64,000 bases of DNA from Escherichia coli. GTDB lineage: Bacteria > Pseudomonadota > Gammaproteobacteria > Enterobacterales > Enterobacteriaceae. The stretch is from the NCBI RefSeq assembly GCF_011045215.1, contig NZ_CP049201.1; one strand, given 5' to 3'. Below the pieces are notes generated by a model. It was not told the DNA's origin. It was given only the letters and a program-made list of their open reading frames with translations, and ran no database searches. A program made the translations under genes and the position numbers. This document shows positions 42,181-59,979 of the stretch, in pieces (the first letter of the stretch is position 1; every line of letters starts with the position of its first letter).

Positions 42181-42642
<462 letters not shown>

Positions 42643-42663
42643 TTCGTTATTCAACGAGACGTA

Positions 42664-42695
42664 AAAACGCCGACCACTGGTCGGCGTTTTGCTTT
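42664..42695. terminator. Bidirectional intrinsic terminator between rplI and convergent yjfZ
   Basis: Stem CGCCGACCA ... TGGTCGGCG flanked by A-tract (AAAAA) on one side and T-tract (TTTTGCTTTCTATTTTT) on the other. Confidence 0.8.
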
Positions 42696-42712
42696 CTATT
42701 TTTCGTCAGGCA

Positions 42713-43507
42713 TTAATTTCGCAAGTAGATCCATTCACCATTCTCTTGTGTCCATAAGTCAGGATGGTTTGCTGGCGTTAGATACATATGAGCGCAACTG
42801 ATGTCTCGCTCCTGCGGCACTCGCTCAAAACCCAAACCCGAGTAGATTGCTGCTGAACTTGATAAGGAACGCAGACCAATTTTCAAATCATGGGGTAAAT
42901 CAGAATACGCGTTTAGCAATGCAGCAATGATGAATCCGAGGGCATTAGAAACGCCTGTAACAGTGCGAAGTTGGTCGATATAAAGATCGATTGTTGGTAG
43001 TTCAGATGACCAGCAATTAGGCATTTGGGCAGGAAGGGTTACAACGTATCCTATCGTTTGGCCGGTATAGTCTGGAGTACCATAACCAGGTCCCAAAACA
43101 ACCTCGTGTATTGTGTATCTACTGTTGGGTTCGAAGGATTCGACATCTTGCAATAAATATTTCAGTTCTGCGGTTAACCGCGCACCCGCGTAAGCTTTAT
43201 TGTATTTCTGGGCGTGAATATTATCTAATGTAGCTTCATGGTTCCATCCAAAAGAATTATCACCATTCATTGTTATTCCATCGTAAGCATTACACCTCGT
43301 CGCTAACTTATTGAATGCTTGCCAGTCTGAGAGATCTAGTTTGTGGATCTCAACAGTACGTCTGCCATCGCAATTATGATCTCTTCCACGATTTGAAAGT
43401 AATGTAGCGCGTGCGTATTGATGAAATTTTAATTTTACTGGTTTGTCGGTGGACGAAAAACGAGATAAATATGCAGGAAATGAATAAATAGTGGTTGGTA
43501 ATGTCAT
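42713..43507 (-). CDS. yjfZ: Uncharacterised protein YjfZ (DUF2686)
   Basis: 264-aa ORF in AT-rich DNA; recognised as YjfZ; no informative motifs. Confidence 0.85.
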   Translation of the reverse strand: MTLPTTIYSFPAYLSRFSSTDKPVKLKFHQYARATLLSNRGRDHNCDGRRTVEIHKLDLSDWQAFNKLATRCNAYDGITMNGDNSFGWNHEATLDNIHAQKYNKAYAGARLTAELKYLLQDVESFEPNSRYTIHEVVLGPGYGTPDYTGQTIGYVVTLPAQMPNCWSSELPTIDLYIDQLRTVTGVSNALGFIIAALLNAYSDLPHDLKIGLRSLSSSAAIYSGLGFERVPQERDISCAHMYLTPANHPDLWTQENGEWIYLRN

Positions 43508-43728
43508 TGTAATGTTACCTGTTTAATATTTTTACAAATATCGCAGCTGAATGTTCAAAGAAAAAGAATTGATATTAATAAAAATAAGTTTGTTTTCTGA
43601 AGTGGTGAAAATAGCGGATGGTGAAAGATATTAATATCAAAAATCGCTCATTATGGATATAACGATGCACCAGGGGAGAAAATGACTTCCACGCCTTACA
43701 CCGTACATTCTTGTTGTGCGGTATGTAA

Positions 43729-44078
43729 TTATTCTACGCTGTCGGTATTGGTGTATTCGTTAATCAGCAGGTTAACCAGCCACAAAAAGCCATTGAGAAA
43801 ATTATTGATTTTACATGGAATTATTATATTGCCAATCCTTGGTTTTTAAAAATTGTGCATAGTGAAAATCAAAGTAAAGGTGTGCATTATGCAAAATCAC
43901 AGCGTCTCTTAGAAATTACCCATGCGCACTTGCAGTTAATGGAATCCTTATTGGATGAAGGGAAGAAACACAATATTTTTAAGCCAGATATCGACCCATT
44001 TCAGGTGAATATTAATATTGCTGCGCTTGGGGGATATTATTTGATCAACCAGCATACGCTTGGCCTGGTTTATCCGGT
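43729..44078 (+). pseudogene. ytfA: TetR-family regulator fragment (C-terminal ligand-binding region only), apparently interrupted at its 3' end by the IS element
   Basis: Open frame from 43729 (GTG 43855 is the first listed start) encodes ...[30 protein letters not shown]...[16 protein letters not shown]..., resembling a TetR C-terminal domain; no N-terminal HTH is encoded upstream; from about 44080 the frame reads antisense through IS sequence. Confidence 0.6.
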
Positions 44079-44130
44079 GCGCCGTAAAACCCCGTCCTTC
44101 AGGGCGGGGATATACGGCGCGGTTTTCCAC

Positions 44131-44558
44131 CTAACCAGGTGTTTGCTGTTGTTCAATGTATTGACGGATGGCGGATATTGGCGCACCTCCGCAGCTACTG
44201 GCAAAATAGCCAGGACTCCACAAAACGCCTTTGTAGTAATACCTGACTGCAATATCTGGTCGATCTCGTCGCAGTAACCTACCCGATACGCCTTTGAGGC
44301 TGTTTACCAGACTGGATATCGCCAGTTTGGGAGGATAGTTAATTAACAAACGTGATCTGGTTCGCCATCCATTTCAACCAGTTCAGCTTCAAAATCAGCA
44401 CATACCTTTGAAAAGTAAGTGCGTAGTTTTTCTGTCGCGTCATGGTCAAAAATCTGGCGTCGGTATCTGGTGACAAAGACCAGGTGAACATGCATCAGGA
44501 AAACACAATGCCTTCCACGCCGGATATCGGTTTCTTTTTTCACAGACCAAAGTATCAT
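44131..44558 (-). pseudogene. tnpA: IS200/IS605 TnpA (Y1 HUH transposase), disrupted by a frameshift
   Basis: Two adjacent ORFs in different frames (44343..44558 and 44131..44349) together give a ~143-aa TnpA-like protein: ...HCVFLMHVHLVFVTRYRRQIF...EPDHV / [26 protein letters not shown]...[26 protein letters not shown]; the break is inside the HUH motif. Confidence 0.8.
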
Positions 44559-44565
44559 TTGGCCT

Positions 44566-45774
44566 GTGAAACGACTACAGGCATTTAAATTCCAGTTAAG
44601 ACCCGGTGGTCAACAGGAGCGTGAAATGAGGCGCTTCGCAGGCGCATGTCGTTTCGTTTTCAATCGTGCTCTGGCACGTCAGAATGAGAATCATGAGGCC
44701 GGTAATAAATACATCCCTTACGGGAAAATGGCTTCCTGGCTGGTTGAGTGGAAAAATGCCACTGAAACGCAATGGCTTAAAGATGCCCCGTCACAGCCAT
44801 TGCAACAGTCACTGAAAGACCTTGAGCGGGCTTACAAAAACTTCTTCCGGAAGCGGGCTGCTTTTCCCCGATTCAAAAAGCGGGGACAGAATGATGCATT
44901 CCGCTACCCGCAGGGCGTTAAGCTCGATCAGGAAAACAGTCGTATTTTTCTGCCGAAACTTGGCTGGATGCGCTACCGGAATAGCCGTCAGGTCACGGGT
45001 GTTGTGAAAAATGTCACTGTCAGCCAGTCCTGCGGTAAGTGGTACATCAGTATTCAGACTGAAAATGAAGTATCAACTCCGGTTCACCCTTCAGCATTAA
45101 TGGTCGGACTGGATGCTGGCGTGGCTAAACTCGCCACGCTGTCAGATGGCACAGTCTTTGGGCCTGTAAACAGTTTTCAGAAAAACCAGAAGACGCTGGC
45201 GAGACTTCAGCGACAGTTAAGCCGCAAGGTCAAATTCAGCAACAACTGGCAGAAGCAGAAACGCAAAATACAGCGACTGCATTCCTGTATCGCAAATATC
45301 CGCAGGGACTACCTTCACAAAGTCACAACGACCGTCAGCAAAAACCACGCAATGATAGTCATTGAGGATTTGAAGGTCAGCAACATGTCAAAGTCAGCAG
45401 CGGGTACGGTCAGCCAGCCGGGGCGCAATGTCCGGGCAAAATCAGGTTTAAACCGTTCGATACTGGATCAGAGCTGGTATGAAATGCGCCGCCAGCTTGA
45501 GTACAAGCAGCTCTGGCGTGGCGGTCAGGTGCTTGCTGTTCCGCCAGCGTACACAAGCCAGCGTTGCGCGTGCTGTGGTCATACAGCGAAAGAAAATCGC
45601 CTGTCACAAAGTAAATTCAGATGCCAGGCATGTGGATATACAGCGAACGCTGATGTAAATGGCGCTCGTAACATTTTAGCGGCGGGGCACGCCGTTCTTG
45701 CCTGTGGAGAGATGGTGCAGTCAGGCCGCCCGTTGAAGCAGGAACCCACCGAAATGATTCAGGCGACAGCCTGA
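44566..45774 (+). CDS. tnpB: TnpB (OrfB) of an IS200/IS605-family element; RuvC-like RNA-guided endonuclease family
   Basis: 402-aa ORF from GTG 44566; N-terminus [13 protein letters not shown]...[12 protein letters not shown] typical of TnpB; RuvC-I (VGLDAGV), RuvC-II (IVIEDLKV), zinc finger (CACCGH...CQACGY) and RuvC-III ([10 protein letters not shown]) all present; an alternative ATG at 44626 with an AGGAG SD would give 382 aa. Confidence 0.9.
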
Positions 45775-45908
45775 ACGTAGCAGGGATCCACGTCCTTCAG
45801 GGCGTGGAGGATGTCAACACATCAGTATGGTTTCACCCCAGGCACTGGAAGCCAGACGTAAGGTCATCAAAGAGACAATCCTTAGCTGGCTTTTGGTTGA
45901 CCCTTCAT

Positions 45909-46547
45909 CTACCGCGCACGAATAAAACTGCCATCCGGCTGGCGGGTGAACAGGACCTGTTGATTATTCCCCGTATCAATGGTTAAGCCCGTCACCACGC
46001 CGCTGGCGTTCTGGCGGATTTTCACCATCTGCCCGTTTTGCAAATTACTCAGCGGCTTACCCGCGCCTTCTACCTGCGCCATTGCATAGACATCGGTAGC
46101 GGGCAGTCCGTGGTCGCGGAACAGCTGCGCCATCGTTTTACCGGGTTCGACACGGTAAGAGCGCCATTGATTATCAATTCCGCTATCTGGCTGGAATGGT
46201 TGCGTTTGGGTAGTTTGCGGCTGTTCTTCTGGCTGGCCTTCCTGTATAGGTTCTGGAGCGACCGGAGCCACCTGATCAGGATCATTTTGTGGTGTGACTA
46301 ATTGCGCCCGCAGCTGTTCTTCTGTCGGCGGTTGTGATTGTGACTGAATATCTAACTGCGCTTCACGCGTCACCACCGGCGCGTTGAGCGTATCATCAGA
46401 TGGAAGCAGAAATCCGACCACCAATACAATGGCGGCAATAATGATCCCCCGACGATGCATCGGCGGCAGCGGGTCCATGAAGCGAAAATTGTCCGGCGCG
46501 TGCCAGACTTTCTCCAGGGTTGGTTTTAGTTCAAAGCGCCCGGGCAT
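45909..46547 (-). CDS. ytfB: Cell-division protein YtfB (OapA/LysM-like domain)
   Basis: 212 aa from [21 protein letters not shown]; TM anchor, Pro/Gln-rich linker, C-terminal OapA domain. Confidence 0.88.
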
Positions 46548-46765
46548 GGTTTCCTCCTGCTCCGCGTCTTGTTCCTCAATCATAGCCTATGAATAAGCTA
46601 ACGCTATGATGTCCGTGGTAAACCCGCCTTTATTATATTCATACGGGATATTGCTATTGTTTCTTTTTCCCCGTGATTTGTCATCATTCCCGCGACAAAG
46701 TTTTACCCAAAGAAGTGTGGCTGATATGCTGCCCGCTACTTTTATACCCTAAGAAAGGAAATACG

Positions 46766-47386
46766 ATGACCACCCCAACTTTTGACACCATCGAAGCGCA
46801 AGCAAGCTACGGCATTGGTTTGCAGGTAGGGCAACAACTGAGTGAATCTGGCCTGGAAGGGCTGCTGCCAGAAGCACTGGTTGCAGGTATTGCCGATGCG
46901 CTGGAAGGCAAACATCCGGCTGTTCCGGTTGATGTGGTGCATCGCGCGCTGCGTGAAATCCACGAGCGCGCCGATGCCGTTCGTCGTCAGCGTTTCCAGG
47001 CGATGGCTGCTGAAGGTGTGAAATACCTGGAAGAAAACGCCAAAAAAGAAGGTGTGAATAGCACCGAATCTGGCCTGCAATTCCGCGTGATCAACCAGGG
47101 TGAAGGCGCAATTCCGGCACGTACCGACCGCGTTCGTGTTCATTACACCGGTAAACTGATCGACGGCACCGTGTTTGACAGCTCCGTTGCTCGTGGTGAA
47201 CCCGCTGAATTTCCGGTTAATGGCGTGATCCCTGGCTGGATTGAAGCACTGACTCTGATGCCGGTAGGTTCTAAATGGGAACTGACTATCCCGCAGGAAC
47301 TGGCATATGGCGAGCGCGGCGCAGGCGCATCCATCCCTCCGTTCAGCACCCTGGTGTTTGAAGTCGAACTGCTGGAAATCCTCTAA
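46766..47386 (+). CDS. fklB: FKBP-type peptidyl-prolyl cis-trans isomerase FklB
   Basis: 206 aa from [20 protein letters not shown]; FKBP domain at the C-terminus. Confidence 0.93.
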
Positions 47387-47401
47387 GCAGCGCATTCTGT
47401 T

Positions 47402-47419: not shown

Positions 47420-47694
47420 AGCAGGCATTCAGCAATAACCCCTTCAGTTTGCCAAACGGCGCTATTTTGTGTTGCAAAGACCCCGTAAGCGTGTATTTTT
47501 GTGAGCTGTTTCGCGTTATCACCGTGATATGACACTCACTTTAAACATAAAATTAACATTAGATCTAAATCTTAGTATTCATCCCGCGTATTGTTACCTA
47601 ATATCGATGAGTCCCGATACAGATTCGTCGTATCATAGACTGACTAAAGGCCGTAGAGCCTGAACAACACAGACAGGTACAGGAAGAAAAAAAC

Positions 47695-49107
47695 ATGGTA
47701 GATCAGGTAAAAGTCGTTGCCGATGATCAGGCTCCGGCTGAACAGTCGCTACGGCGCAATCTCACAAACCGACATATTCAGCTTATTGCCATTGGCGGTG
47801 CCATTGGTACGGGGTTGTTTATGGGGTCTGGCAAAACGATTAGCCTTGCCGGGCCGTCGATCATTTTCGTTTATATGATCATTGGTTTTATGCTCTTTTT
47901 CGTGATGCGGGCAATGGGGGAATTGCTGCTTTCGAATCTGGAATACAAATCTTTTAGTGACTTCGCTTCCGATTTACTCGGGCCGTGGGCAGGATATTTC
48001 ACCGGCTGGACTTACTGGTTCTGCTGGGTTGTAACCGGTATGGCAGACGTGGTGGCGATCACGGCTTATGCTCAGTTCTGGTTCCCCGATCTCTCCGACT
48101 GGGTCGCCTCGCTGGCGGTGATAGTGCTGCTGCTGACGCTTAACCTCGCCACCGTGAAAATGTTCGGTGAGATGGAGTTCTGGTTTGCGATGATCAAAAT
48201 CGTCGCCATTGTGTCGCTGATTGTCGTCGGCCTGGTCATGGTGGCGATGCACTTTCAGTCACCGACTGGTGTGGAAGCGTCATTCGCGCATTTGTGGAAT
48301 GACGGCGGCTGGTTCCCGAAAGGTTTAAGTGGCTTCTTTGCCGGATTCCAGATAGCGGTTTTCGCTTTCGTGGGGATTGAGCTGGTAGGTACAACAGCTG
48401 CGGAAACCAAAGATCCAGAGAAATCACTGCCACGCGCGATTAACTCCATTCCGATCCGTATCATTATGTTCTACGTCTTCGCGCTGATTGTGATTATGTC
48501 CGTGACGCCGTGGAGTTCGGTAGTCCCGGAGAAAAGCCCGTTTGTTGAACTGTTTGTGTTGGTAGGTTTGCCTGCGGCTGCCAGCGTGATCAACTTTGTG
48601 GTGCTGACCTCTGCGGCGTCTTCCGCTAACAGCGGCGTCTTCTCTACCAGCCGTATGCTGTTTGGTCTGGCGCAGGAAGGTGTGGCACCGAAAGCGTTCG
48701 CTAAACTTTCTAAGCGCGCAGTACCCGCGAAAGGGTTGACTTTCTCGTGTATCTGTCTGCTCGGCGGCGTAGTGATGTTGTATGTGAATCCTAGCGTGAT
48801 TGGCGCGTTCACGATGATTACAACCGTTTCCGCGATTCTGTTTATGTTCGTCTGGACAATTATCCTTTGCTCGTACCTGGTGTACCGCAAACAGCGTCCT
48901 CATCTGCATGAGAAGTCGATCTACAAGATGCCGCTCGGCAAGCTGATGTGCTGGGTATGTATGGCGTTCTTTGTGTTCGTGGTCGTGTTGCTGACACTGG
49001 AAGATGACACTCGCCAGGCGCTGCTGGTTACCCCGCTGTGGTTTATCGCGCTGGGGCTGGGCTGGCTGTTTATTGGTAAGAAGCGGGCTGCTGAACTGCG
49101 GAAATAA
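47695..49107 (+). CDS. cycA: D-serine / D-alanine / glycine : H+ symporter CycA (APC family)
   Basis: 470-aa ORF MVDQVKVVADDQAPAEQSLRRNLTNRHIQLIAIGGAIGTGLF... Confidence 0.95.
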   Translation: MVDQVKVVADDQAPAEQSLRRNLTNRHIQLIAIGGAIGTGLFMGSGKTISLAGPSIIFVYMIIGFMLFFVMRAMGELLLSNLEYKSFSDFASDLLGPWAGYFTGWTYWFCWVVTGMADVVAITAYAQFWFPDLSDWVASLAVIVLLLTLNLATVKMFGEMEFWFAMIKIVAIVSLIVVGLVMVAMHFQSPTGVEASFAHLWNDGGWFPKGLSGFFAGFQIAVFAFVGIELVGTTAAETKDPEKSLPRAINSIPIRIIMFYVFALIVIMSVTPWSSVVPEKSPFVELFVLVGLPAAASVINFVVLTSAASSANSGVFSTSRMLFGLAQEGVAPKAFAKLSKRAVPAKGLTFSCICLLGGVVMLYVNPSVIGAFTMITTVSAILFMFVWTIILCSYLVYRKQRPHLHEKSIYKMPLGKLMCWVCMAFFVFVVVLLTLEDDTRQALLVTPLWFIALGLGWLFIGKKRAAELRK

Positions 49108-49151
49108 CCGCATTATCATGCTGGATGGCGCAATGCCATCCAGCTTTTAGA

Positions 49152-49814
49152 TCACTCACCCGCCAGCGCGCGTGGGAACAGTACATTGTTTTCCAGGCTG
49201 ATGTGATCCATCAGGTCATCAATCAGTTCATTAATGCCGTTATACATCGCTTTCCAGGTGGTGCAGGCTTCCGGCGGCGGTGTGACGTTATTGGTAGTGT
49301 GTTTGATCACTTCCAGCAGTTCACCCGCTTCATCGTGCTCGCTTTCCATTACGCTGATTGGCCCCATTGCCTGGCTGCCCATGCCTTGTTTGATCATCGG
49401 GAAGAGGATCTGCTCTTCTTTCATCATGTGGCTGGAAAGCTCTTCATGCAGCATAGTCAGGTATTTTGTCAGCCCTTTTGGCACGCTCGGTTTGTCGGCG
49501 TGAACGCGCTCGACTTTAGTCGCTTGCAGGATCAGCTCCGGCAACTGCTCGCGGTGACGATCGTGGTAGCGCACGATGATATGGTCAATGATTTCTGCCA
49601 GCGGGGCGCTACGCCAGTCTTTCTCAATCGGTTGTTCAGCAAGCTTTGCCAGCTCAGCTTCAATGACCTCAACATTCAGCTCCTTACGTGCCGCTGCGCG
49701 CGCCAGCGTCTGCTTACCGCCACAGCAGTAATCCATATCATATTTACGAAACAGAGCTGAAGCGCGAGGAATAGAGAGCGCCAGTTCACCTAAAGGTTGG
49801 TCGCGATAAGCCAT
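49152..49814 (-). CDS. ytfE: Iron-sulfur cluster repair di-iron protein YtfE (RIC)
   Basis: 220-aa [36 protein letters not shown]... (ScdA_N plus hemerythrin-like domain). Confidence 0.95.
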
Positions 49815-49840
49815 AGCTGATACCTCATTCTTAATAAGAT

Positions 49841-49863
49841 AAGATGTATTTTAAATGCATCTT
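49841..49863. promoter_or_regulatory. NsrR operator in the ytfE promoter
   Basis: AAGATGTATTTTAAATGCATCTT: 23-bp near-perfect palindrome matching the NsrR consensus, 27 nt upstream of the ytfE start codon. Confidence 0.85.
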
Positions 49864-49921
49864 TAAGGCAAAAGCTATAACCCTTACGTAGCAGAGGCTT
49901 ATTTAACTCACTGCCAGCGTG

Positions 49922-50887
49922 TCAACTTTCTGAGACAGATTCAGTTAAAGGTTTTTCTGGTTTTGCTCTGACCGCGATGACCACGCCAATCACTAACAGC
50001 GCGATACCGCTCAGCGTCATTAGCGGCGGCATTTGCTGGCGGAGTAAAAAGGTGTACAGCAAACCTGCCAGCGTTTCGAAAACAATCAGCGGCCCGAGAA
50101 TCACTGTCGGTAATCGCTGGCTGGCGACGTTCCAGCAGAGTGCGCCAACCCATGAGCAAAGCACGGCTATCGCAATCATCAGACTAATAAACACCAGCGG
50201 ACGGGGGCCAAAGGGTAGGGAGAAGTCCGGCGTTTGCGTATTCAGCCAGTAACAAGCGACGAGATAGCCGATAAGTGAAACCGGCAGTGTGACCAGCGCC
50301 TGCGCTGTTGCCCACATCATCGGATGTTTGTCGGGATTTTCCCGCAGCCAGCGGGCGTTGCGCAGGGCATACCACGCCCAGCAGACCACGGAAACTAACG
50401 CCAGCACGATGCCAGAGGTATAACGTGCCCAGTCAAAATTGGGGAGTCCGTGGTTTAACTCAGCAATATTCACACACGCCAGGCCGATGCCAATACAAAT
50501 CAGTGCCGGGGCGAGTTTTCCCCACGCGAGTTTGCCGTCGCGCTGGCTATAAAGCAGATTGGCGAAGACGGGAATCACCACCGGCAGGGTGCCGATAATC
50601 ATCGTGGAAACAGGCGCACCAGTACGTTGAATGGCACTGGCAAGGCAGAAGTAATAGATGAGGTTGCCCATCATAGTGAGCATCAAGGCGGTAAGCCAGT
50701 CGCGACGCGCCAACTGACGCAGACGCACGCGTCCCAGCCAGGCAATGGGCAGCGCAATTAACCCTAACGCCAGATAACGCCCCATCGACTGCAACATCGC
50801 CGGGTATTCCGGCACGATCAACGGCCCGACAAAAATAAGCCCCCACATCAACCCTGCTAACAGGGCGTACAGCACGCCGCTAATCAT
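49922..50887 (-). CDS. ytfF: EamA/DMT-family inner-membrane transporter YtfF
   Basis: ORF 49922..50896 (324 aa); I have used the ATG at 50887 (321 aa, MISGVLYALLAGLMWGLIF...), but the start is uncertain by 3 codons. Confidence 0.85.
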   Translation of the reverse strand: MISGVLYALLAGLMWGLIFVGPLIVPEYPAMLQSMGRYLALGLIALPIAWLGRVRLRQLARRDWLTALMLTMMGNLIYYFCLASAIQRTGAPVSTMIIGTLPVVIPVFANLLYSQRDGKLAWGKLAPALICIGIGLACVNIAELNHGLPNFDWARYTSGIVLALVSVVCWAWYALRNARWLRENPDKHPMMWATAQALVTLPVSLIGYLVACYWLNTQTPDFSLPFGPRPLVFISLMIAIAVLCSWVGALCWNVASQRLPTVILGPLIVFETLAGLLYTFLLRQQMPPLMTLSGIALLVIGVVIAVRAKPEKPLTESVSES

Positions 50888-50994
50888 TACTGGCATCCAT
50901 TGATCTGTCAGAAGAAAGTTCAGGAAGCAGACATGATTGCTCCCGGCATTCCGTCATTATCAGAGAGGATGCGGGAGGATGCCACTTTAATTAA

Positions 50995-51855
50995 CTAGAT
51001 ATTAACATTAAAAAGATGGCTTACGCTTTCGGCTAACGTTGTCGTTGGGTGGCCAATCAATTTGCTAAGTGTTTTGCTGTCATCAAACAGACCGCCTTTC
51101 GATGCGCCAACGTCAGAATCCGCCAGCATATCCGCCAGTCCGTCGGGCAGTCCGACGCTTTTCAGTGCCGCGGCGAAATCGGCTTCGCTCAGATTTTGAT
51201 AGGTAACCTGTTTGCCGCTTTGTTTGGTCAGCTCTGCCACTAACTGTGTCAACGTCCAGGCACTATCGCCCGCCAGTTCGTAAACCTTGCCTTCGTGACC
51301 GGCTTCGCTAATCACGCGTGCCGCAGCTGCCGCATAATCTGCCCGCGTTGCTGAGGCGATTTTGCCATCGCCCGCCGCACCGATAAATACGCCGTGTTCC
51401 AGTGCTGCCGGGGCGCTGGCGAGGTAGTTTTCGCTGTACCAGCCGTTGCGCAGCAGGGTGTAAACGATGCCAGAGTCAGCCAGCATTTTCTCCGTCTCGA
51501 TGTGCTCATCGGCGAGGCCGAGCGGGGAGGTATCTGCATGTAGCAGGCTGGTATAAGCGATAAATTTCACGCCAGCCGCCTTTGCGGCATTAATAACATT
51601 ACGATGCTGCGGGGCACGTTGACCCACTTCGCTGGAAGAGATCAGCAGTAGTTTTTCCACTCCCTGAAGTGCAGATGTCAGTGCGGCTTCATCGCCGTAG
51701 TCAGCCTGACGCACGGTAATGCCTTGTGCTGCCAGGGCCTGGGCTTTTGCCGGATTACGAACGATAGCCACTATTTGGCTGGCAGGAACCGTTTTCATCA
51801 AGGATTCAATAACATAGTGACCAAGTTGGCCAGTGGCACCAGTAATAGCGATCAT
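50995..51855 (-). CDS. qorB: NAD(P)H:quinone oxidoreductase QorB (YtfG)
   Basis: 286-aa ORF with N-terminal Rossmann motif (ITGATGQLG), NmrA-like family. Confidence 0.9.
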   Translation of the reverse strand: MIAITGATGQLGHYVIESLMKTVPASQIVAIVRNPAKAQALAAQGITVRQADYGDEAALTSALQGVEKLLLISSSEVGQRAPQHRNVINAAKAAGVKFIAYTSLLHADTSPLGLADEHIETEKMLADSGIVYTLLRNGWYSENYLASAPAALEHGVFIGAAGDGKIASATRADYAAAAARVISEAGHEGKVYELAGDSAWTLTQLVAELTKQSGKQVTYQNLSEADFAAALKSVGLPDGLADMLADSDVGASKGGLFDDSKTLSKLIGHPTTTLAESVSHLFNVNI

Positions 51856-51943
51856 GGGAAGTCTCCATCGTTTTGTCTTGAGTTTAAATACGCTAACACC
51901 TAAACTTACTTTTAGTAAGTACGTACAAAAAGGTAAGTATGAA

Positions 51944-52324
51944 ATGAGTCAGGTTAGCCTGTCGCAACAACTGAAAGAGGGTAATCTCTTTGCGGAACAG
52001 TGCCCGTCGCGCGAGGTGTTGAAACACGTCACCAGCCGTTGGGGGGTGTTGATTCTGGTGGCGCTACGCGAAGGTACTCATCGCTTTAGCGACCTGCGGC
52101 GCAAAATCGGCGGGGTGAGCGAAAAGATGCTTGCGCAGTCGTTACAGGCGTTAGAACAGGATGGTTTTCTTAACCGTATCGCGTATCCGGTGGTGCCGCC
52201 GCATGTGGAATATAGCCTCACGCCGCTGGGCGAGCAGGTGAGCGAAAAGGTTGCTGCACTGGCGGACTGGATTGAGTTGAATTTGCCCGAGGTGTTGGCG
52301 GTGCGGGATGAACGTGCGGCATAA
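51944..52324 (+). CDS. ytfH: HxlR-type winged-helix transcriptional regulator YtfH
   Basis: 126 aa from MSQVSLSQQLKEGNLFAEQCPSREVL (ATG 51944); the listed 163-aa ORF extends upstream into the divergent ytfG start region. Confidence 0.85.
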   Translation: MSQVSLSQQLKEGNLFAEQCPSREVLKHVTSRWGVLILVALREGTHRFSDLRRKIGGVSEKMLAQSLQALEQDGFLNRIAYPVVPPHVEYSLTPLGEQVSEKVAALADWIELNLPEVLAVRDERAA

Positions 52325-52325
52325 C

Positions 52326-52430
52326 TGCCGGATGCGCGGCCTACGGTGTATGACTTGTAGGGCGGATAAGATGCGCCAGCATCGCATCCGCCAATAAATG
52401 CCGGATGCGGTTGATGATTTATAGGCCGAA
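52326..52430. repeat. REP-like repeat cluster downstream of ytfH
   Basis: Several GCCGGATGCG / TGTAGGGCGGATAAG ... CATCCGCC REP-type units in alternating orientation. Confidence 0.55.
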
Positions 52431-52441
52431 AAAGAAGTGTT

Positions 52442-54385
52442 TTACTTACTCAAATCCACCTGATAAATCGCAAACCCGATATCATCGGTCGCGACTTTAT
52501 TCATCGGATATTGCCCTTTCTCTTTAATAAACGCTGCGGCTTTATCTGACGGGGAAGTTTCGAAACGGATATCCAGTTTCTTATCGCCAGCAATCGGTGC
52601 TAAACGCCAGTTGTTATCTGCCGCCGGGTGAATTTCCCCCGCACGTTTCGACTCATCAGCAAACCACGCTGCCAGCACCGAGCGGTTCTCATCCGGTGAA
52701 GCAAAAGCGATATGGCTGTCGCCCGTACCGGCAAATTTGCCGCCGTAAGCGCGATAGTTATTGGTGGCAACGAGGAACATAGCGTTCGGATCAATCGGCT
52801 TGCCATTAAAGGTCAGGTTCTTAATCCTTTCCGCATTGGCATTAATCATCTGGCACTCGCCGTCATAACGGGCGGGCTGGGTAACATCAATCTGATAATT
52901 CACACCATCAATAACATCAAAGTTATAGGTGCGGAAACCGTCCCAGTTGATGAGTGACTGTGGTTTCGTGCTGTTAGGATCAATCTGGTTAAACTGTCCG
53001 GCGGAGCACTCCAGCCACTCTTTCACCTCTTTACCGCTGGCTTTCACCACAATCAGCGTATTGGGGTAGAGATAAAGATCGGCGGCATTACGGAAGGTCA
53101 ACTGGCCTTTTTCCACCTCCACATAGCTTGCCGGGTCATTTTTGCGACCACCAACTTTAAACGGTGCGGCAGCTGAAAGCACCGGCAGTTTTGCCAGATC
53201 CGGATCGCCCTGAATGTAATGCTCGACATACGCTTTTTGCGCGTTGTTCACCACCTGCACGGTCGGATCGTCCTGCACCAGCGCCAGATAGCTATACATA
53301 TTGTCGGCAGATTTACCGATTGGCTTGCTGACGAACTGGCGTGTGGCATCGTGATCGGCTTTGAGTGTTTCTACCAGCTTGCTGTCTTCCGCTGCGAGTG
53401 ATTTTTTATTAGCGATATCGTAAATCGGCCGTGCTTCCGCTTTCGCCTGCGTCACCTGCCATTTACCGCTGTCATTACTGAGTTGTAAGTCGACCACCCC
53501 AAGATGATCGCCCCACATGCCTGGCATTACCGCCGGAACACCATTCAGCGTGCCTTTGGCGATATCAGCCCCTTCGATATCAGCAAAATCTTTACCCGGG
53601 AAAACGGCGTGAGCATGGCCAAACATAATGGCGTTAACGCCCGGAATTTCACTGAGGTAATAAACTGAGTTTTCCGCCATCACTTTATACGGATCGGCAG
53701 ACAGCCCGGAATGTGCCAGAACGACAACAACATCGGCACCTTTCTCGCGCATTTCAGGCACGTATTTGCGCACGGTTTCGGTAATATCATTCACTGTCAC
53801 TTTCCCGGATAAATTAGCTTTATCCCAGCCCATGATTTGTGGCGGCACGACGCCAATATAGCCAATCTTCAGCGTCTGTTTTTTTCCGTCTTTATCGACC
53901 ACTTCGGTGTCTTTAATTAAATACGGTGTAAACATTGGCTGTTTGGTTCTGGCGTCAATGACGTTGGCATTTACATAAGGGAATTTCGCTCCTGCCAGCG
54001 CATTTTTCAGGTAATCCAGACCGTAGTTAAACTCGTGGTTGCCAAGCGTTCCGACGGTATAGTCCAGCGTATTTAATGCCTTATAGACCGGGTGAATATC
54101 ACCTGCTTTTAATCCTTTCGCCGACATGTAATCGGCCAGCGGACTCCCCTGAATCAAATCGCCGTTATCGACCAGTACGCTGTTTTTAACTTCATTGCGG
54201 GCATCGTTAATCAGGCTTGCCGTACGTACCAGTCCGAATTTTTCCGTGGCGGTGTCTTTGTAATAATCGAAATCCATCATGTTGCTATGCAGATCAGTGG
54301 TTTCCATGATACGCAGATCGACCGTCGCTGCATTCACACTGGCGGCAATCAGCGTGGCCAGGAGCGTTGCGCTAAACTTAATCAT
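52442..54385 (-). CDS. cpdB: Periplasmic 2',3'-cyclic-nucleotide 2'-phosphodiesterase / 3'-nucleotidase CpdB
   Basis: 647 aa from [28 protein letters not shown] (signal peptide); metallophosphatase plus 5'-nucleotidase C domain. Confidence 0.93.
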
Positions 54386-54574
54386 CAGGGACATCCTTTT
54401 ATCATCGGGAATACGAAAGAAAAGGGAGAATAAACGTCTTACTTATAGAACAGTGAAGAATGCCACAATTTTACGCTTTGAAAATGATGACACTATCACA
54501 GTTGGCGCATTCATTAACGATAGGGTATAAGTAAAACAATAAGTTAACACCGCTCACAGAGACGAGGTGGAGAA

Positions 54575-55315
54575 ATGTTAGATCAAGTATGCCAGCTTGC
54601 ACGGAATGCAGGCGATGCCATTATGCAGGTCTACGACGGGACGAAACCGATGGACGTCGTCAGCAAAGCGGACAATTCTCCGGTAACGGCAGCGGATATT
54701 GCCGCACACACCGTTATCATGGACGGTTTACGTACGCTGACACCGGATATTCCGGTCCTTTCTGAAGAAGATCCTCCTGGTTGGGAAGTCCGTCAGCACT
54801 GGCAGCGTTACTGGCTGGTAGACCCGCTGGATGGTACTAAAGAGTTTATTAAACGTAATGGCGAATTCACCGTTAACATTGCACTCATTGACCATGGCAA
54901 ACCGATTTTAGGTGTGGTGTATGCGCCGGTAATGAACGTAATGTACAGCGCGGCAGAAGGCAAAGCGTGGAAAGAAGAGTGCGGTGTGCGCAAGCAGATT
55001 CAGGTCCGCGATGCGCGCCCGCCGCTGGTGGTTATCAGCCGTTCCCATGCAGATGCGGAGCTGAAAGAGTATCTGCAACAGCTTGGCGAACATCAGACCA
55101 CATCCATCGGCTCTTCGCTGAAATTCTGCCTAGTGGCGGAAGGACAGGCGCAGCTGTACCCGCGCTTCGGACCAACGAATATTTGGGACACCGCCGCTGG
55201 ACATGCTGTGGCTGCAGCTGCCGGAGCGCACGTTCACGACTGGCAGGGTAAACCGCTGGATTACACTCCGCGCGAGTCGTTCCTGAATCCGGGGTTCAGA
55301 GTGTCTATTTACTAA
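54575..55315 (+). CDS. cysQ: 3'(2'),5'-bisphosphate nucleotidase CysQ
   Basis: 246-aa ORF with inositol-monophosphatase-family motifs ([12 protein letters not shown]). Confidence 0.95.
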
Positions 55316-55526
55316 ATTCAGATGGCAGAAACAGTGTATTTCCTGATTCTGCCATCCTGATTTATCCCAACCTAATAAGTTATAAATAAAAAGAGATTGT
55401 ATTTAAAGTGCAAAAATTCAATTGCTAATAAGTTACATTTTAATAATGAGCGTTTTTTGATAGTTTACTTCTATAATGAGATATTTAATGGCGACATAAA
55501 ATAACGAAATAAAATAAGGTAGCCAT

Positions 55527-56465
55527 ATGTTACCCAGGATCAGACACAATAATTTTATTGGTGCGGTGGAGTTATTTGTAAAATCATCGCATACAAAAAC
55601 ACATTTAAACAATTTTTTAAATAATATTCAGCATGCATTTAAGAAAAAAGATTGGATTTCGAATTATGATTGCCTGTTAACTTTGCGGGAGTTCTTTCGT
55701 TGCGCAACTCAGATTGATAAAGATAGTTATCAAGTGCTTTCATCAAAAAATGGAACTGTTAACGCTATGGATAAGTTTCTTATCAGTTTCAGCCTTAAAG
55801 ATAACGGTGCCGAATATACAATGACATTGCGAGGCAGTGGATTTGAATACGAAGAAATCCCCATAACAATAAATGAGTATAACTCATTCATGGATTTCAA
55901 AAACCGTGAATTTCCGTTAGAACAAAACAGACGATTGTATGCCTGGGATATTCTGCAGAAAAAACAGTCTGACATACCGAAAAGGATTAAAGGTTATATT
56001 CACCAGGCGATTGGTGACGTGTCTTTAGGTTATGCCTTATTGGAGGATATAGTAAGCAAATTAAAACGGGGTAAATTTGAACTCCAAATACCAGCAGGTG
56101 GAATTAAAGAATGCGATGGATGGTATATTTACGAAAAAATAATTGATGATAATTTTGCCATAGTCATAGAATCTTTGGGCTTTGCGCTTAAAATCTATGG
56201 AGGGGATGAACGTTTTCGTAATGGTTCCTCTGTTGTTTTGGAGGATGAAGATTACTCTCTTATTTATAATTTTCTGGTTAATGCAGGTTGCCAACAAGTC
56301 GGATTAGCCGAACAAGTGGATGCGATAGTAAGTGCGAATCTGGCCGCAGATAGTGATATTACCAAAGAAAAGATTTGCGAGAAATATAAATCGACCATTG
56401 AGGCGTTTAAAAAAGAGCAACTAGCGTTACCAGTATTAGTTCGGTGTAAGAACTCAGAGACTTAA
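55527..56465 (+). CDS. ytfI: Uncharacterised protein YtfI
   Basis: 312-aa ORF in strongly AT-rich DNA; recognised as YtfI; no known domain. Confidence 0.8.
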   Translation: MLPRIRHNNFIGAVELFVKSSHTKTHLNNFLNNIQHAFKKKDWISNYDCLLTLREFFRCATQIDKDSYQVLSSKNGTVNAMDKFLISFSLKDNGAEYTMTLRGSGFEYEEIPITINEYNSFMDFKNREFPLEQNRRLYAWDILQKKQSDIPKRIKGYIHQAIGDVSLGYALLEDIVSKLKRGKFELQIPAGGIKECDGWYIYEKIIDDNFAIVIESLGFALKIYGGDERFRNGSSVVLEDEDYSLIYNFLVNAGCQQVGLAEQVDAIVSANLAADSDITKEKICEKYKSTIEAFKKEQLALPVLVRCKNSET

Positions 56466-56527
56466 TTCCCCTATCCCATAGATAACGATAGGGGAAAATT
56501 ATTTTTGCAGAATTTATGTTATTGCCA

Positions 56528-57082
56528 TTATTTGAGCAACTTTTGCAGCAGGTCCATCACTTGCTGCACCTCTTCCTGAGTGAGCGCCCCGTCTTTGGCC
56601 CATTGCACGCGACCGTCTTTATCCAGCACCACTACAGCGGAACTTTCTTCATCCAGCTGCCAGGCACCGCGCGCGACGCCATTGCTATCGACAATAAACT
56701 GCGACCAGGGATAAAGCTTTTTATTACTCTCCAGACTGCTGCGCACAAACATCCCTGAACCCGGAATCGCGTCGTCGGTGTTAACAATGGTGGTGGTCTG
56801 GTAACGATCGTGCGGTAACTTCGCTGATTTAATCGCTTCAATCAGCGTCGCGTTTTTCTCTTTTGCAGAGGTGCGACCAGCAATATGTTGCAGTACTCGC
56901 ACTTTTCCCACTAACTGCGCGCTGTTCCAGGTTTTGTAGCTAAACTGATCTTTATCAAGCACCAACTCGCCCCGATCGGTAATGCCAATCGGCGGCACTC
57001 GCTGACCGGTTTCGAACTGATGTGCGGAAGCCATCATCGGCAGCAGCAGGCAGGTGAGTGCCAGAATCTTGCGTAGGGTCAT
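56528..57082 (-). CDS. ytfJ: Periplasmic protein YtfJ (thioredoxin-like, DUF1107)
   Basis: 184-aa ORF with signal peptide MTLRKILALTCLLLPMMASA. Confidence 0.88.
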   Translation of the reverse strand: MTLRKILALTCLLLPMMASAHQFETGQRVPPIGITDRGELVLDKDQFSYKTWNSAQLVGKVRVLQHIAGRTSAKEKNATLIEAIKSAKLPHDRYQTTTIVNTDDAIPGSGMFVRSSLESNKKLYPWSQFIVDSNGVARGAWQLDEESSAVVVLDKDGRVQWAKDGALTQEEVQQVMDLLQKLLK

Positions 57083-57406
57083 GGTGTTTCCTTCTTATGA
57101 TATGCAGGTGATCCGACCACTTGGGTCTGAGTTTTAATCATATGTGCTATTTATCGAATTTCCCGCAAGTGTGATGCCAGTTTGCGGTCAAGCGCACAAA
57201 TCATATGAAAAATGAATGCTTATACTGAAGACCGCGCTTCGGTAAAAAGATAATTCTGAATAATTGTAACCTTTAGGTAAAAAAAGTTATACGCGGTGGA
57301 AACATTGCCCGGATAGTCTATAGTCACTAAGCATTAAAATTTGCGCCTCATAATAGTTGGGCCGATTGTGGCACCGCACAGGCGTAATACTCAGCAGGAG
57401 ATAACA

Positions 57407-57613
57407 ATGAAAATTTTCCAACGGTACAACCCACTTCAGGTGGCGAAGTACGTAAAGATCCTGTTCCGTGGACGGTTATACATCAAGGACGTTGGCGCTT
57501 TTGAATTCGATAAGGGTAAGATTCTTATCCCAAAAGTGAAGGATAAGCTGCATTTGTCAGTGATGTCCGAAGTTAACCGTCAGGTTATGCGTCTGCAAAC
57601 AGAGATGGCTTAA
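57407..57613 (+). CDS. ytfK: Small protein YtfK (DUF1107)
   Basis: 68 aa from [20 protein letters not shown] (ATG 57407 with AGGAG SD); the listed 90-aa ORF is an upstream extension. Confidence 0.85.
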
Positions 57614-57636
57614 CCAAAGTGCTATGCAGTAATAAG

Positions 57637-57665
57637 ACGGCTCCTGATTCAGGAGCCGTTGATGT
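57637..57665. terminator. Bidirectional terminator between convergent ytfK and ytfL
   Basis: Stem ACGGCTCCT-GATTC-AGGAGCCGT followed by TGATGTTT. Confidence 0.65.
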
Positions 57666-57674
57666 TTCTGGGGG

Positions 57675-59018
57675 TTACGCGACGCTTTCTTCTTTATCTT
57701 TAGCGTCAGGCAGTTTTGGCGAAAGGGCTGTGGCCTTGCTGTCGATCCGGGTCACCAGCAGCTGGTCGATGCGGTAGTTATCGATATCCACCACTTCAAA
57801 TTTGTAGCCGGCGAATTTCACCGAATCGGTGCGTTTCGGGATCTTACGCAGCATAAACATCATAAAGCCGCCGATGGTTTCGTAGTTGCCCGACTGCGGG
57901 AACTCGTCAATATCCAGCACGCGCATGACGTCGTCAATCGGGGTGCCGCCGTCAATCAGCCATGAGTTCTCATCACGGGCGACAATCTGCTCTTCCAGCC
58001 CCTGGCCGACCAGATCGCCCATCAGCGTGGTCATCACGTCGTTGAGGGTGATGATCCCCACTACCAGCGCGTACTCGTTCATGATCACCGCGAAGTCTTC
58101 ACCTGCGGTTTTAAAACTTTCCAACGCCTCTGAAAGGGTTAACGTATCCGGCACAATCAGCGTGTTGCGAATTTGTACGCCGCTGTTCAGTGCCAGGCTT
58201 TGGTTAGCCAGCACGCGGTTCAGCAGGTCTTTAGAATCGACATAACCGATGATGTGGTCAATATCTTCATTACAGACGAGGAACTTAGAGTGCGGATGTT
58301 CCGCCACTTTATTCTTCAGACTTTGCTCATCTTCGTGGAGATCAAACCAAATCACGTTTTCACGCGGTGTCATTGACGACGGAACGGTACGGGATTCCAG
58401 CTCAAAGACGTTTTCAATCAGCTCGTGTTCCTGTTTACGTAACACGCCCGCCAGCGCACCGGCTTCCACTACCGCGTAGATGTCATCAGAAGTGATGTCA
58501 TCTTTACGTACCATTGGCAGTTTGAAAATACGGAAGATTATGTTCGCCAGGCCGTTGAAGAACCACACCAGCGGGGTGCAAACGTACAGGCAGAAGCGCA
58601 TCGGGTTGATGATACGCAAAGCCACCGCTTCTGGCGCAATCATACCGATGCGTTTCGGGGTTAAATCCGCAAACAGGATAAACATGCCAGTCACTAACGA
58701 GAAAGAGAGAATAAAGCTCAGTTGCTCAGAGAGCTCTGCCGACATATAGCGGGAGAACAGGCTGTGAAAAGCTGGAGAAAATGCCGCATCACCGACGATA
58801 CCGCCGAGAATCGCCACTGCGTTCAGACCGATTTGGACCACGGTAAAGAACATGCCGGGATTTTCCTGCATATTCAGAACGCGTTGGGCATTTATATTGC
58901 CTTCATCAGCCAGCAGTTTAAGTTTGATTTTGCGTGAGGCGGCAAGCGAGATCTCGGACATCGAGAAGAACGCACTTACAGCGATCAAGCAGAGTATGAC
59001 TAAAATACTGTTTAACAT
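57675..59018 (-). CDS. ytfL: Inner-membrane protein YtfL (CNNM/TlyC family, DUF21-CBS-CorC)
   Basis: 447-aa ORF with N-terminal TM domain, CBS pair and CorC_HlyC C-terminal domain. Confidence 0.9.
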   Translation of the reverse strand: MLNSILVILCLIAVSAFFSMSEISLAASRKIKLKLLADEGNINAQRVLNMQENPGMFFTVVQIGLNAVAILGGIVGDAAFSPAFHSLFSRYMSAELSEQLSFILSFSLVTGMFILFADLTPKRIGMIAPEAVALRIINPMRFCLYVCTPLVWFFNGLANIIFRIFKLPMVRKDDITSDDIYAVVEAGALAGVLRKQEHELIENVFELESRTVPSSMTPRENVIWFDLHEDEQSLKNKVAEHPHSKFLVCNEDIDHIIGYVDSKDLLNRVLANQSLALNSGVQIRNTLIVPDTLTLSEALESFKTAGEDFAVIMNEYALVVGIITLNDVMTTLMGDLVGQGLEEQIVARDENSWLIDGGTPIDDVMRVLDIDEFPQSGNYETIGGFMMFMLRKIPKRTDSVKFAGYKFEVVDIDNYRIDQLLVTRIDSKATALSPKLPDAKDKEESVA

Positions 59019-59194
59019 ATCTTATCCGACCTTTCAGGCCAGATCCTCGGAAGGGGAAGTTGATTAATTTGTGTGAAATACACATTGAAAGCCGATTCGA
59101 AGAAAGTGAACCGGCATTTTCAGTGGCTAGTATAGCGTAAGGTACTGTAAAGTCGCCAGAGGGTTAAAATTCAGACTGCTGATAAATGCAATAC

Positions 59195-59294
59195 TGCCTG
59201 ATGCGCTATGCCGATCAGGCCTACGCAGTCCTTGCAATATATTGAATTTGGACGATTTTGTAGGCCTGGTAAGGCGTTTACGCCGCATCCGGCA
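59195..59294. repeat. BIME: two REP elements in inverted orientation
   Basis: TGCCTGATGCGCTATGCCGATCAGGCCTACG (59195-59225) and TGTAGGCCTGGTAAGGCGTTTACGCCGCATCCGGCA (59259-59294). Confidence 0.75.
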
Positions 59295-59340
59295 TAAATA
59301 AAGCGCACTTTATCAACAATCTACATTTGTACCCGTAACG

Positions 59341-59979
59341 CTATGCTTCCGGTGGCAGACAGACGCCAATTCCGCCAATTCCACAGTAACCATACGGGTT
59401 TTTATGCAGATATTGCTGGTGGTCATCTTCGGCATAATAAAACGGTGTGGCGTTAGCGATTTCCGTGGTGATGTGACGATCGTCATCGGCGGCAAGCATC
59501 GCCGCCTGAAAACGTTCCAGACTGGCGCGAGCTGCGGCATCCTGTTCTGGGGTCAGCGGATAAATCGCTGAACGATACTGCGTGCCGTGGTCATTGCCCT
59601 GACGCATTCCCTGGGCGGGATCGTGATTCTCCCAAAATACCTGTAGCAACTGCTCATAGCTGATGACGGAAGGATCGTAAACAATGCGTACCGCTTCGGC
59701 ATGACCCGTATCACCGGAGTACACTTCCCGATAAGTCGGATTTGGCGTATAGCCGCCGGTATAGCCTGCGGCGGTGCTGTAAACGCCGGGTAACTGCCAG
59801 AACAGACGCTCCACACCCCAGAAACAACCCATCGCAAAAATGGCAATCTCCATTCCGTCAGGTACATTGGTCATTGAGTGACCGTTGACCGCATGCAGCG
59901 TGGCTACGGGCATCGGGGTGTTACGTCCAGGCAGGGCATCGGCGGGGGAAACCAGATGCTTTTTATCAAATAAACTCAT
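59341..59979 (-). CDS. msrA: Peptide methionine sulfoxide reductase MsrA
   Basis: 212 aa from [16 protein letters not shown]; catalytic GCFWG motif. Confidence 0.93.

Follow-up and report, generated by a model that had tools for sequence, protein, structure and literature searches.

A copy of IS609 that interrupts ytfA in the window (the whole analyzed stretch of 64,000 nucleotides of Escherichia coli DNA, contig NZ_CP049201.1) has lost 4 bp of the transposase gene tnpA and retains an intact tnpB. In the best explanation that we can offer, with a probability of roughly 0.85, this element was recently rendered non-autonomous by the deletion, and tnpB is intact mainly because the lesion is young. 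The feature itself is already known: IS609 is a catalogued element, and RefSeq/PGAP labels the identical tnpA allele 'frameshifted', that is, marks it as a pseudogene.

Under this scenario, a young 4-bp deletion has stripped TnpA of one of its two HUH metal-binding histidines, leaving tnpB, the end hairpins and the TTAT motif untouched, so that TnpB and its guide RNA would still be made from the window copy and TnpA supplied by another IS609 copy could still excise it. The integrity of tnpB would then be due mainly to the short time available for decay since the lesion, with moderate purifying selection on tnpB across the IS609 family as an additional factor. The dead allele would travel between strains by homologous recombination of the ytfA region, without transposition, and, within a genome, would pass among IS609 copies by gene conversion.

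The element resides in a chromosome segment of E. coli type, in which the genes follow one another as rplI, yjfZ, ytfA', IS, 'ytfA, ytfB, fklB, cycA, and the insertion is made up as follows.

43780..44073, plus strand: 5' fragment of ytfA (after the PGAP annotation of the same locus in strains XH990 and O55:H7)
44070..44073, plus strand: TTAT target-adjacent motif (TTTAT in the window copy), abutting the left end on its 5' side
44074..45817, plus strand: IS609 copy (IS200/IS605 family), 1744 bp (1748 bp if intact), from CCGGTGCGCC to GGATGTCAA
44079..44120, plus strand: left-end subterminal hairpin, GCGCCGTA...CCCCGTCCTTCAGGGCGGGG...TACGGCGC
45787..45808, plus strand: right-end subterminal hairpin, TCCACGTCCTTCAGGGCGTGGA (single-strand DNA fold)
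45818..45925, plus strand: 3' fragment of ytfA, starting directly after the right end of IS609

The K-12 MG1655 annotation of IS609, to which the window copy is 97.8% identical over 1748 bp (identity to the XH990 copy is 99.8%), agrees with these boundaries, as does the empty ytfA site. The split gene, ytfA, belongs to the TetR/AcrR family and is a pseudogene already in K-12, where the insertion is absent and the sequence runs continuously across the IS609 site (...CTGGTTTAT/CACATCAGTATGG...); the window IS609 sits exactly between these two halves, without a scar. The empty K-12 site reads TTTAT/CACATCAG, target duplication is absent, and TTAT immediately precedes CCGGTGCGCC at all five chromosomal IS609 insertion loci that were sampled. 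Folded as single-stranded DNA, the left-end hairpin has an energy of -20 kcal/mol (z = -3.6), and its TCCTTCAGGG loop region is shared with the right-end hairpin. The element is assigned to the IS200/IS605 family on account of the gene for a Y1 HUH TnpA (here a pseudogene), the same-strand subterminal hairpins in place of terminal inverted repeats, the insertion 3' of a fixed motif without target-site duplication, and the identity with IS609. The start codons of tnpA (minus strand) and tnpB (plus strand) are divergent and only 7 bp apart (44558-44566), a spacing which implies that the promoter of each gene must fall within the other gene; a consensus scan of the window detected no clear promoter for either gene, and the scan for promoters and terminators yielded nothing usable for tnpB expression.

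The transposase gene consists of two halves in different frames.

44131..44558, minus strand: tnpA pseudogene (Y1 HUH transposase), 428 bp
44343..44558, minus strand: N-terminal half of tnpA, MILWSV...EMDGEPDHVC*, with a premature TAA at 44343-44345
44131..44349, minus strand: C-terminal half of tnpA, in the other frame, (M)LINYPPK...QQQTPG*
44350/44351, minus strand: junction of the 4-bp deletion, placed by alignment with the intact allele of the same locus

The earlier note on this DNA had placed the break in the TnpA frame at the second histidine of the HUH motif, had described the two halves as otherwise well conserved, and had proposed an alignment with intact tnpA to define the indel. 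When the intact ytfA-locus allele of E. coli O55:H7 RM12579 (432 bp, 143 aa, WP_000604943.1) is used as the reference, both observations are borne out, and the indel proves to be a 4-bp deletion at 44350/44351 and the only difference between the two alleles, the remaining 428 of 428 bases being identical. On the coding strand, the missing bases are either TCCA or CCAT, which corresponds to TGGA or ATGG when the plus strand is read. Intact TnpA contains ...EPDHVHLLINYPPK..., in which DHVHLL aligns to DKDHIHIL of the IS608 TnpA (2A6M); we take the latter to be the HUH metal-binding motif, with H64 and H66, and therefore, the deleted codon is that of the second histidine, His71. In agreement with this placement, the two halves match positions 2-59 and 61-126 of NCBIfam NF033573 (126 positions), and position 60 alone is absent. 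The frame-restored TnpA scores 145.7 bits against this family (cut-off 55), each half passes the cut-off separately, and solved TnpA structures match TnpA at E = 1e-17 to 1e-20. Measured against an autonomous IS, the window copy lacks the codon for His71, encounters a stop after residue 71, and encodes Tyr135 in the other frame only. Judging from its sequence, therefore, this copy is unable to produce an active TnpA, given that the HUH histidine is gone and the protein ends at 71 residues, in line with the expectation of the earlier note that the element could not move by itself.

The earlier note also named two circumstances that would undo this reading, namely, a sequencing error at the junction, or a TnpA that is naturally made from two frames. 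We consider either of these extremely improbable. Against an artefact, the identical deletion is found in 60 records of complete genomes and also on independent metagenome and SRA contigs. As for programmed frameshifting of the IS1/IS3 type, the two-frame state is not the normal one, the common allele being a single 143-codon frame, and none of the structurally solved members of the TnpA family requires two frames. Furthermore, as read from the sequence, the product of a -1 slip at GTT-T would run DHV-LLINY across the two halves, with His71 still absent; because every slip product lacks this residue, recoding cannot rescue the enzyme, and because any frame-restoring slip leaves His71 missing, neither a sequencing error nor a two-frame gene accounts for the break. 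The 4-bp deletion is, then, a genuine, rare and derived allele.

The rarity of this allele becomes apparent from a search of 5,426 complete E. coli genomes with a 60-bp probe that spans the deletion. Among the 5001 records that carry the element, the deletion probe matched exactly in 60, and for 4938, the best match was the non-deleted allele. The reverse probe identified just 5 records without any HUH-intact copy. At the protein level, at least 1000 contigs encode the 143-aa intact TnpA, compared with at least 16 for the 71-aa frameshift product, these being additional to the 60 records. About 1700 of the 5426 genomes have IS609 in ytfA, and approximately two thirds of E. coli genomes carry the empty allele.

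Comparison of the window with XH990, a strain that carries the same deletion, reveals no differences in the 496 bp that comprise the left end and tnpA, and 3 differences over the element as a whole. For the flanks, compared at 42560-43839 and 45893-47340, the divergence amounts to 2.6% on the left and 0.9% on the right, a significant contrast with the element (Fisher p = 1e-8). The near-identical tract extends from about 43840 to 45892, covers the IS together with about 300 bp of flanking sequence, and is 0.15% different between the two strains. For the segments 42660-47400 and 47500-59500, the best identity to any genome in the set of 5,426 complete E. coli genomes is 99.1%. By these sequence comparisons, the host lineage is distinct and absent from that set, and may belong to Shigella or to a cryptic Escherichia clade, and yet its IS609 is nearly the same as in unrelated strains, a combination which suggests that homologous recombination recently brought in the ytfA segment together with its IS. 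Upstream of ytfA, yjfZ (42713-43507) and the interval 43580-43840 vary by 1.0-2.6% among four strains, with the right-hand flank being less variable.

Three readings of the damaged element had been proposed in the earlier note, namely, that it was recently inactivated, that tnpB is maintained for another role, and that the copy is mobilized in trans. Recent inactivation fits best, given the rarity of the allele, the identity of the rest of tnpA to the intact form and the 3 bases that separate the element from that of XH990. The tnpA lesion thus looks young, an argument with few sites behind it. The deletion is also found on a mosaic haplotype that is 1.8% divergent from that of the window (isolate 23S01245-7), and accordingly, it may be older than it appears and have been shuffled by recombination, or may have arisen repeatedly. 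Assuming at most 0.6% neutral divergence since the lesion, the number of disabling changes expected in a neutrally evolving tnpB is estimated at well below one. With so little divergence, the integrity of tnpB in the window copy says nothing about selection.

The tnpB gene itself and the RNA predicted to accompany it occupy the right-hand part of the element.

44566..45774, plus strand: tnpB (insQ), RNA-guided endonuclease, 402 codons, GTG start, intact
45647..45817, plus strand: predicted omega-RNA scaffold, covering the tnpB 3' end and continuing to the right end, assigned by position
45818..45833, plus strand: predicted omega-RNA guide flank, CACATCAGTATGGTTT, its guide role assumed from the TnpB mechanism of Meers et al.

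TnpB contains the domains HTH_OrfB_IS605, OrfB_IS605 and TNB (Pfam PF12323, PF01385 and PF07282, respectively) and scores 385 bits against NF040570 (cut-off 100). Alignment to the ISDra2 TnpB shows that D183, E267 and D363 of the RuvC D/E/D triad are retained, as are the cysteine pairs C334/C337 and C353/C356. Thus, the statement of the earlier note that tnpB is free of lesions holds: the 402-codon frame is open and the RuvC residues and both CxxC pairs are present. The gene does not resemble TldR-type (domesticated, nuclease-dead) TnpB, the catalytic residues and both ends of the element being intact. The C336Y change in K-12 InsQ was considered as the loss of a zinc ligand and dropped, the ligands being C334 and C337, with residue 336 an x of CxxC. 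A literature search on the function of IS609 or InsQ found no work on this TnpB within its host. An exact look-up of the window TnpB, taken as a 402-aa protein beginning with V or M and as a 382-aa form, matched no recorded protein in the collections searched.

At the position of the predicted omega-RNA scaffold, the Rfam matches are below threshold, namely, HgcC (E = 0.018, 23.5 bits, gathering 50) and sot0042 (E = 0.19, 17.5 bits, gathering 88), both of them archaeal RNA families located across tnpB 3' ends. The fold of this segment has a z-score of -2.4; the E. coli copies are too alike for covariation. Sub-threshold matches to HgcC, sot0042 and RAGATH-18 span the 3' end of tnpB and the right-end hairpin (45647-45830, plus strand), and the hairpin CCACGUCCUUCAGGGCGUGG closely resembles the terminal hairpin of these archaeal families. 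In the model put forward by Meers et al. (bioRxiv 10.1101/2023.03.14.532601), excision by TnpA releases the element in single-stranded form and leaves the flanks rejoined, the guide RNA of TnpB begins in the 3' end of tnpB and extends into the flank, and TnpB cuts the empty site beside the target motif, after which recombination restores the element. By analogy, the predicted target of the TnpB encoded in the window copy would be TTAT followed by CACATCAGTATGGTTT, a sequence identical to the ytfA allele of K-12 without the insertion.

The ends of the window copy bear on the possibility that it is still mobile in trans, by means of TnpA that a second IS609 copy of its genome would provide. The hairpins at the two ends and the TTAT motif have been preserved, and 56 of the 61 deletion-bearing records contain another copy with the HUH segment. 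Intact 143-aa tnpA alleles are available at ytfA (in other strains), in the yeaR/yoaG region and at ybcM/yedK. Mobilization in trans is the accepted view for the approximately 75% of tnpB genes that have no nearby tnpA (Meers et al., 10.1101/2023.03.14.532601). Strain LD93-1 combines the deletion at ytfA with an open 168-codon tnpA at ydcL, which PGAP calls incomplete and in which the HUH motif and Tyr135 are intact, along with D55Y and a 25-residue stop-loss extension. Against mobility in trans, the complete genomes checked have the deletion allele at ytfA and, through gene conversion, at ydcL, but at no new sites; one short metagenome contig (L026) places it beside ybcM. Most of the non-ytfA copies that were sampled without selection for the TnpA protein bear other tnpA lesions, whereas the yeaR/yoaG copies, which were found by a search for intact TnpA, have an intact tnpA. 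The window contains neither a second IS609 copy nor internal repeats. Finally, IS609 produced 0 new insertions in the K-12 mutation-accumulation lines and is reported never to have transposed there (PMC5009759), with the qualification that the only copy in K-12 carries a nonsense codon. On balance, we regard continued mobility of the window copy as unlikely.

Two of the tnpA genes that PGAP labels 'incomplete', those at ydcL in LD93-1 and at gltX in O157:H7 F6667, are uninterrupted frames of 168-177 codons. The HUH motif and the catalytic Tyr are present in both, and structurally they are altered only by a TAG-to-CAG stop loss, which extends the C terminus by a tail, so that, on the evidence of their sequences, these stop-loss forms may be active.

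Across E. coli, IS609 was found at ytfA, ydcL/ydcO (the K-12 copy), gltX/yfeD and ybcM/yedK, in the yeaR/yoaG region, and on an F-type plasmid. The yeaR/yoaG region is the fifth IS609 locus and came to light through the intact 143-aa TnpA (listed on 559 contigs); in the copies from this region (L013-L019), tnpB is usually intact as well, and each is likely to be a live copy in many strains, although in one of them (contig L017), tnpB is truncated at 262 codons next to an intact tnpA. The tnpA lesions observed include the 4-bp deletion, TGA at codon 96 (in copies at four loci), a 1-bp deletion, a 5-bp deletion with TAA at codon 76, loss of the start codon, TGA at codon 33 and loss of the stop codon. 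In 11 of the 12 copies that were fetched before any protein-selected look-ups, tnpA has a lesion or has lost its stop codon (in two copies, the latter only), with at least seven different changes involved. By contrast, tnpB, which is 2.8 times longer than tnpA, is broken in just 3 of these 12 copies and open in 9.

A comparison of substitutions in tnpA and tnpB among copies, as proposed in the earlier note, reveals moderate purifying selection on tnpB and neutral evolution of tnpA. Of the tnpB sites that segregate among 17 distinct copies, 34 are synonymous and 41 nonsynonymous (pN/pS 0.35, departure from neutrality at p = 1e-5), whereas the 6 synonymous and 18 nonsynonymous or nonsense sites of tnpA fit neutrality (p = 0.8). 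When only copies with a dead tnpA are considered, pN/pS for tnpB is 0.33, and the singletons (13 synonymous to 22 nonsynonymous) also deviate from neutrality (p = 0.04). These sequence patterns suggest that, across E. coli copies, tnpB is kept by selection and tnpA is not, in a sample that is small, partly protein-selected and recombining, where the signal may partly predate the loss of tnpA and gene conversion blurs the history.

This contrast between the two genes is an argument for selection of tnpB and its guide RNA for a job independent of their own TnpA, an interpretation that is compatible with our best explanation and that we entertain tentatively. In its selfish version, TnpB would cut IS-free ytfA alleles (TTAT followed by CACATCAGTATGGTTT) as they arise or arrive, thereby preventing loss of the insertion; the alternative is a host function. 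Apart from damage to tnpA in 11 of 12 copies against 3 of 12 for the longer tnpB, and the low pN/pS of tnpB beside dead tnpA with its singleton signal, this interpretation is consistent with the existence of the five records without an intact HUH in any copy, and with the annotation of both tnpB genes as intact in ECNB21-M121, the one genome checked among those with the deletion at both ytfA and ydcL. In addition, the predicted target corresponds to the empty allele, which roughly two in three E. coli genomes carry, and the IS haplotype has diverged less than its own flanks. Several observations weaken the case. The lesion in the window is too young, so that the test is powerless for the window copy; the low pN/pS may in part date from the time before tnpA was lost; gene conversion from live copies can mend tnpB even if the dead copy is under no selection; broken or truncated tnpB genes occur in SMS-3-5 and E302, on an F-type plasmid and on contig L017; and the sample, as indicated above, is small, recombining and partly picked by protein look-up. 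The suggestion of the earlier note that another role maintains tnpB is thus dispensable as an account of the window copy; across the family, however, tnpB does experience moderate purifying selection.

A more specific and rather improbable possibility is that tnpB and the guide RNA of IS609 persist by their own drive without TnpA, the cleavage of IS-free alleles such as TTAT followed by CACATCAGTATGGTTT biasing recombination toward the IS-bearing allele. If true, such a drive would explain the purified tnpB beside a dead tnpA, the lower divergence of the IS haplotype compared with its flanks, and the occurrence of a transposase-dead allele in distant lineages.

In our preferred explanation, which combines a young lesion with spread by recombination, the dead allele would also move between loci within a genome, and this finds support in four complete genomes (ECNB21-M121, 88COLEC, DETEC-C31 and strain 2824) in which the ytfA copy and the ydcL copy alike bear the deletion. 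The ydcL copy of ECNB21-M121 is a patchwork of ydcL-type and ytfA-type variants, with the deletion located inside a ytfA-type patch; therefore, the lesion has been moved across loci by gene conversion between IS609 copies. A recurrent deletion hotspot was considered as well and rejected, there being only 1 nt of microhomology at the deletion site and the patchwork favoring gene conversion. The TGA at codon 96 (TTA in intact alleles) is common to the K-12 ydcL, SMS-3-5 gltX, O111:H8 ybcM and 23S01245-7 ytfA copies; within the sample, its presence varies among the copies at ytfA, at ydcL and at gltX. Gene conversion and trans-mobilization of dead copies are both conceivable causes of this sharing; gene conversion probably explains the presence of TGA96 at four loci, and probably also the 4-bp deletion on the 23S01245-7 haplotype, 1.8% from that of the window. 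Three metagenome or SRA contigs (L021, L022 and L028), in which the ytfA flank is joined to the ydcL/ydcO flank via the IS, are either assembly chimeras at the repeat or products of real recombination between two IS609 copies, and were set aside as possible chimeras.

A tnpB gene without a working tnpA is the majority case in the IS200/IS605 family. According to Meers et al. (10.1101/2023.03.14.532601), about 25% of tnpB genes have tnpA nearby, and autonomous elements are suggested to be prone to degradation. The window copy offers a clean and dated case of how an autonomous element begins to lose its autonomy, consisting of a single 4-bp lesion with the rest of the element intact, and illustrates that a dead IS allele is able to spread via recombination and gene conversion between copies. 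The difference between a neutral tnpA and a constrained tnpB bears on what keeps tnpB alive, a question that could be tested with E. coli population data.

The closest relatives of the window element are the ytfA copies of IS609 in O55:H7 and O157:H7 (WP_000604943.1, WP_000826434.1), which are inserted at the same locus and point and in the same orientation, are 99.4-99.8% identical at the nucleotide level, and encode a TnpB that differs at 2 residues (L38R and G303S). These alleles have the 4 bp (TCCA) and an intact 143-aa TnpA, so that the window allele is the derived, dead form. The IS609 of K-12 MG1655 (the yncK pseudogene and insQ, between ydcL and ydcO) likewise combines a dead tnpA with an open 402-codon tnpB, but it occupies another locus, and its tnpA has retained the HUH motif and is disabled by TGA at codon 96 along with the loss of the normal stop. 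More distantly, IS608 of H. pylori and ISDra2 of D. radiodurans share with IS609 a HUH/Tyr TnpA, subterminal hairpins, scarless insertion 3' of a short motif, and a TnpB with the RuvC triad and zinc cysteines, whereas IS609 has only distant protein similarity to them, has divergent tnpA and tnpB genes 7 bp apart, and targets TTAT. The tnpB-only elements of G. stearothermophilus also consist of tnpB and a guide RNA between hairpin ends, have no working tnpA, and are thought to be moved in trans and held in place by TnpB cutting of the empty site (10.1101/2023.03.14.532601). Compared with these elements, the window copy still contains a near-perfect remnant of tnpA and thus stands at the very start of that path.
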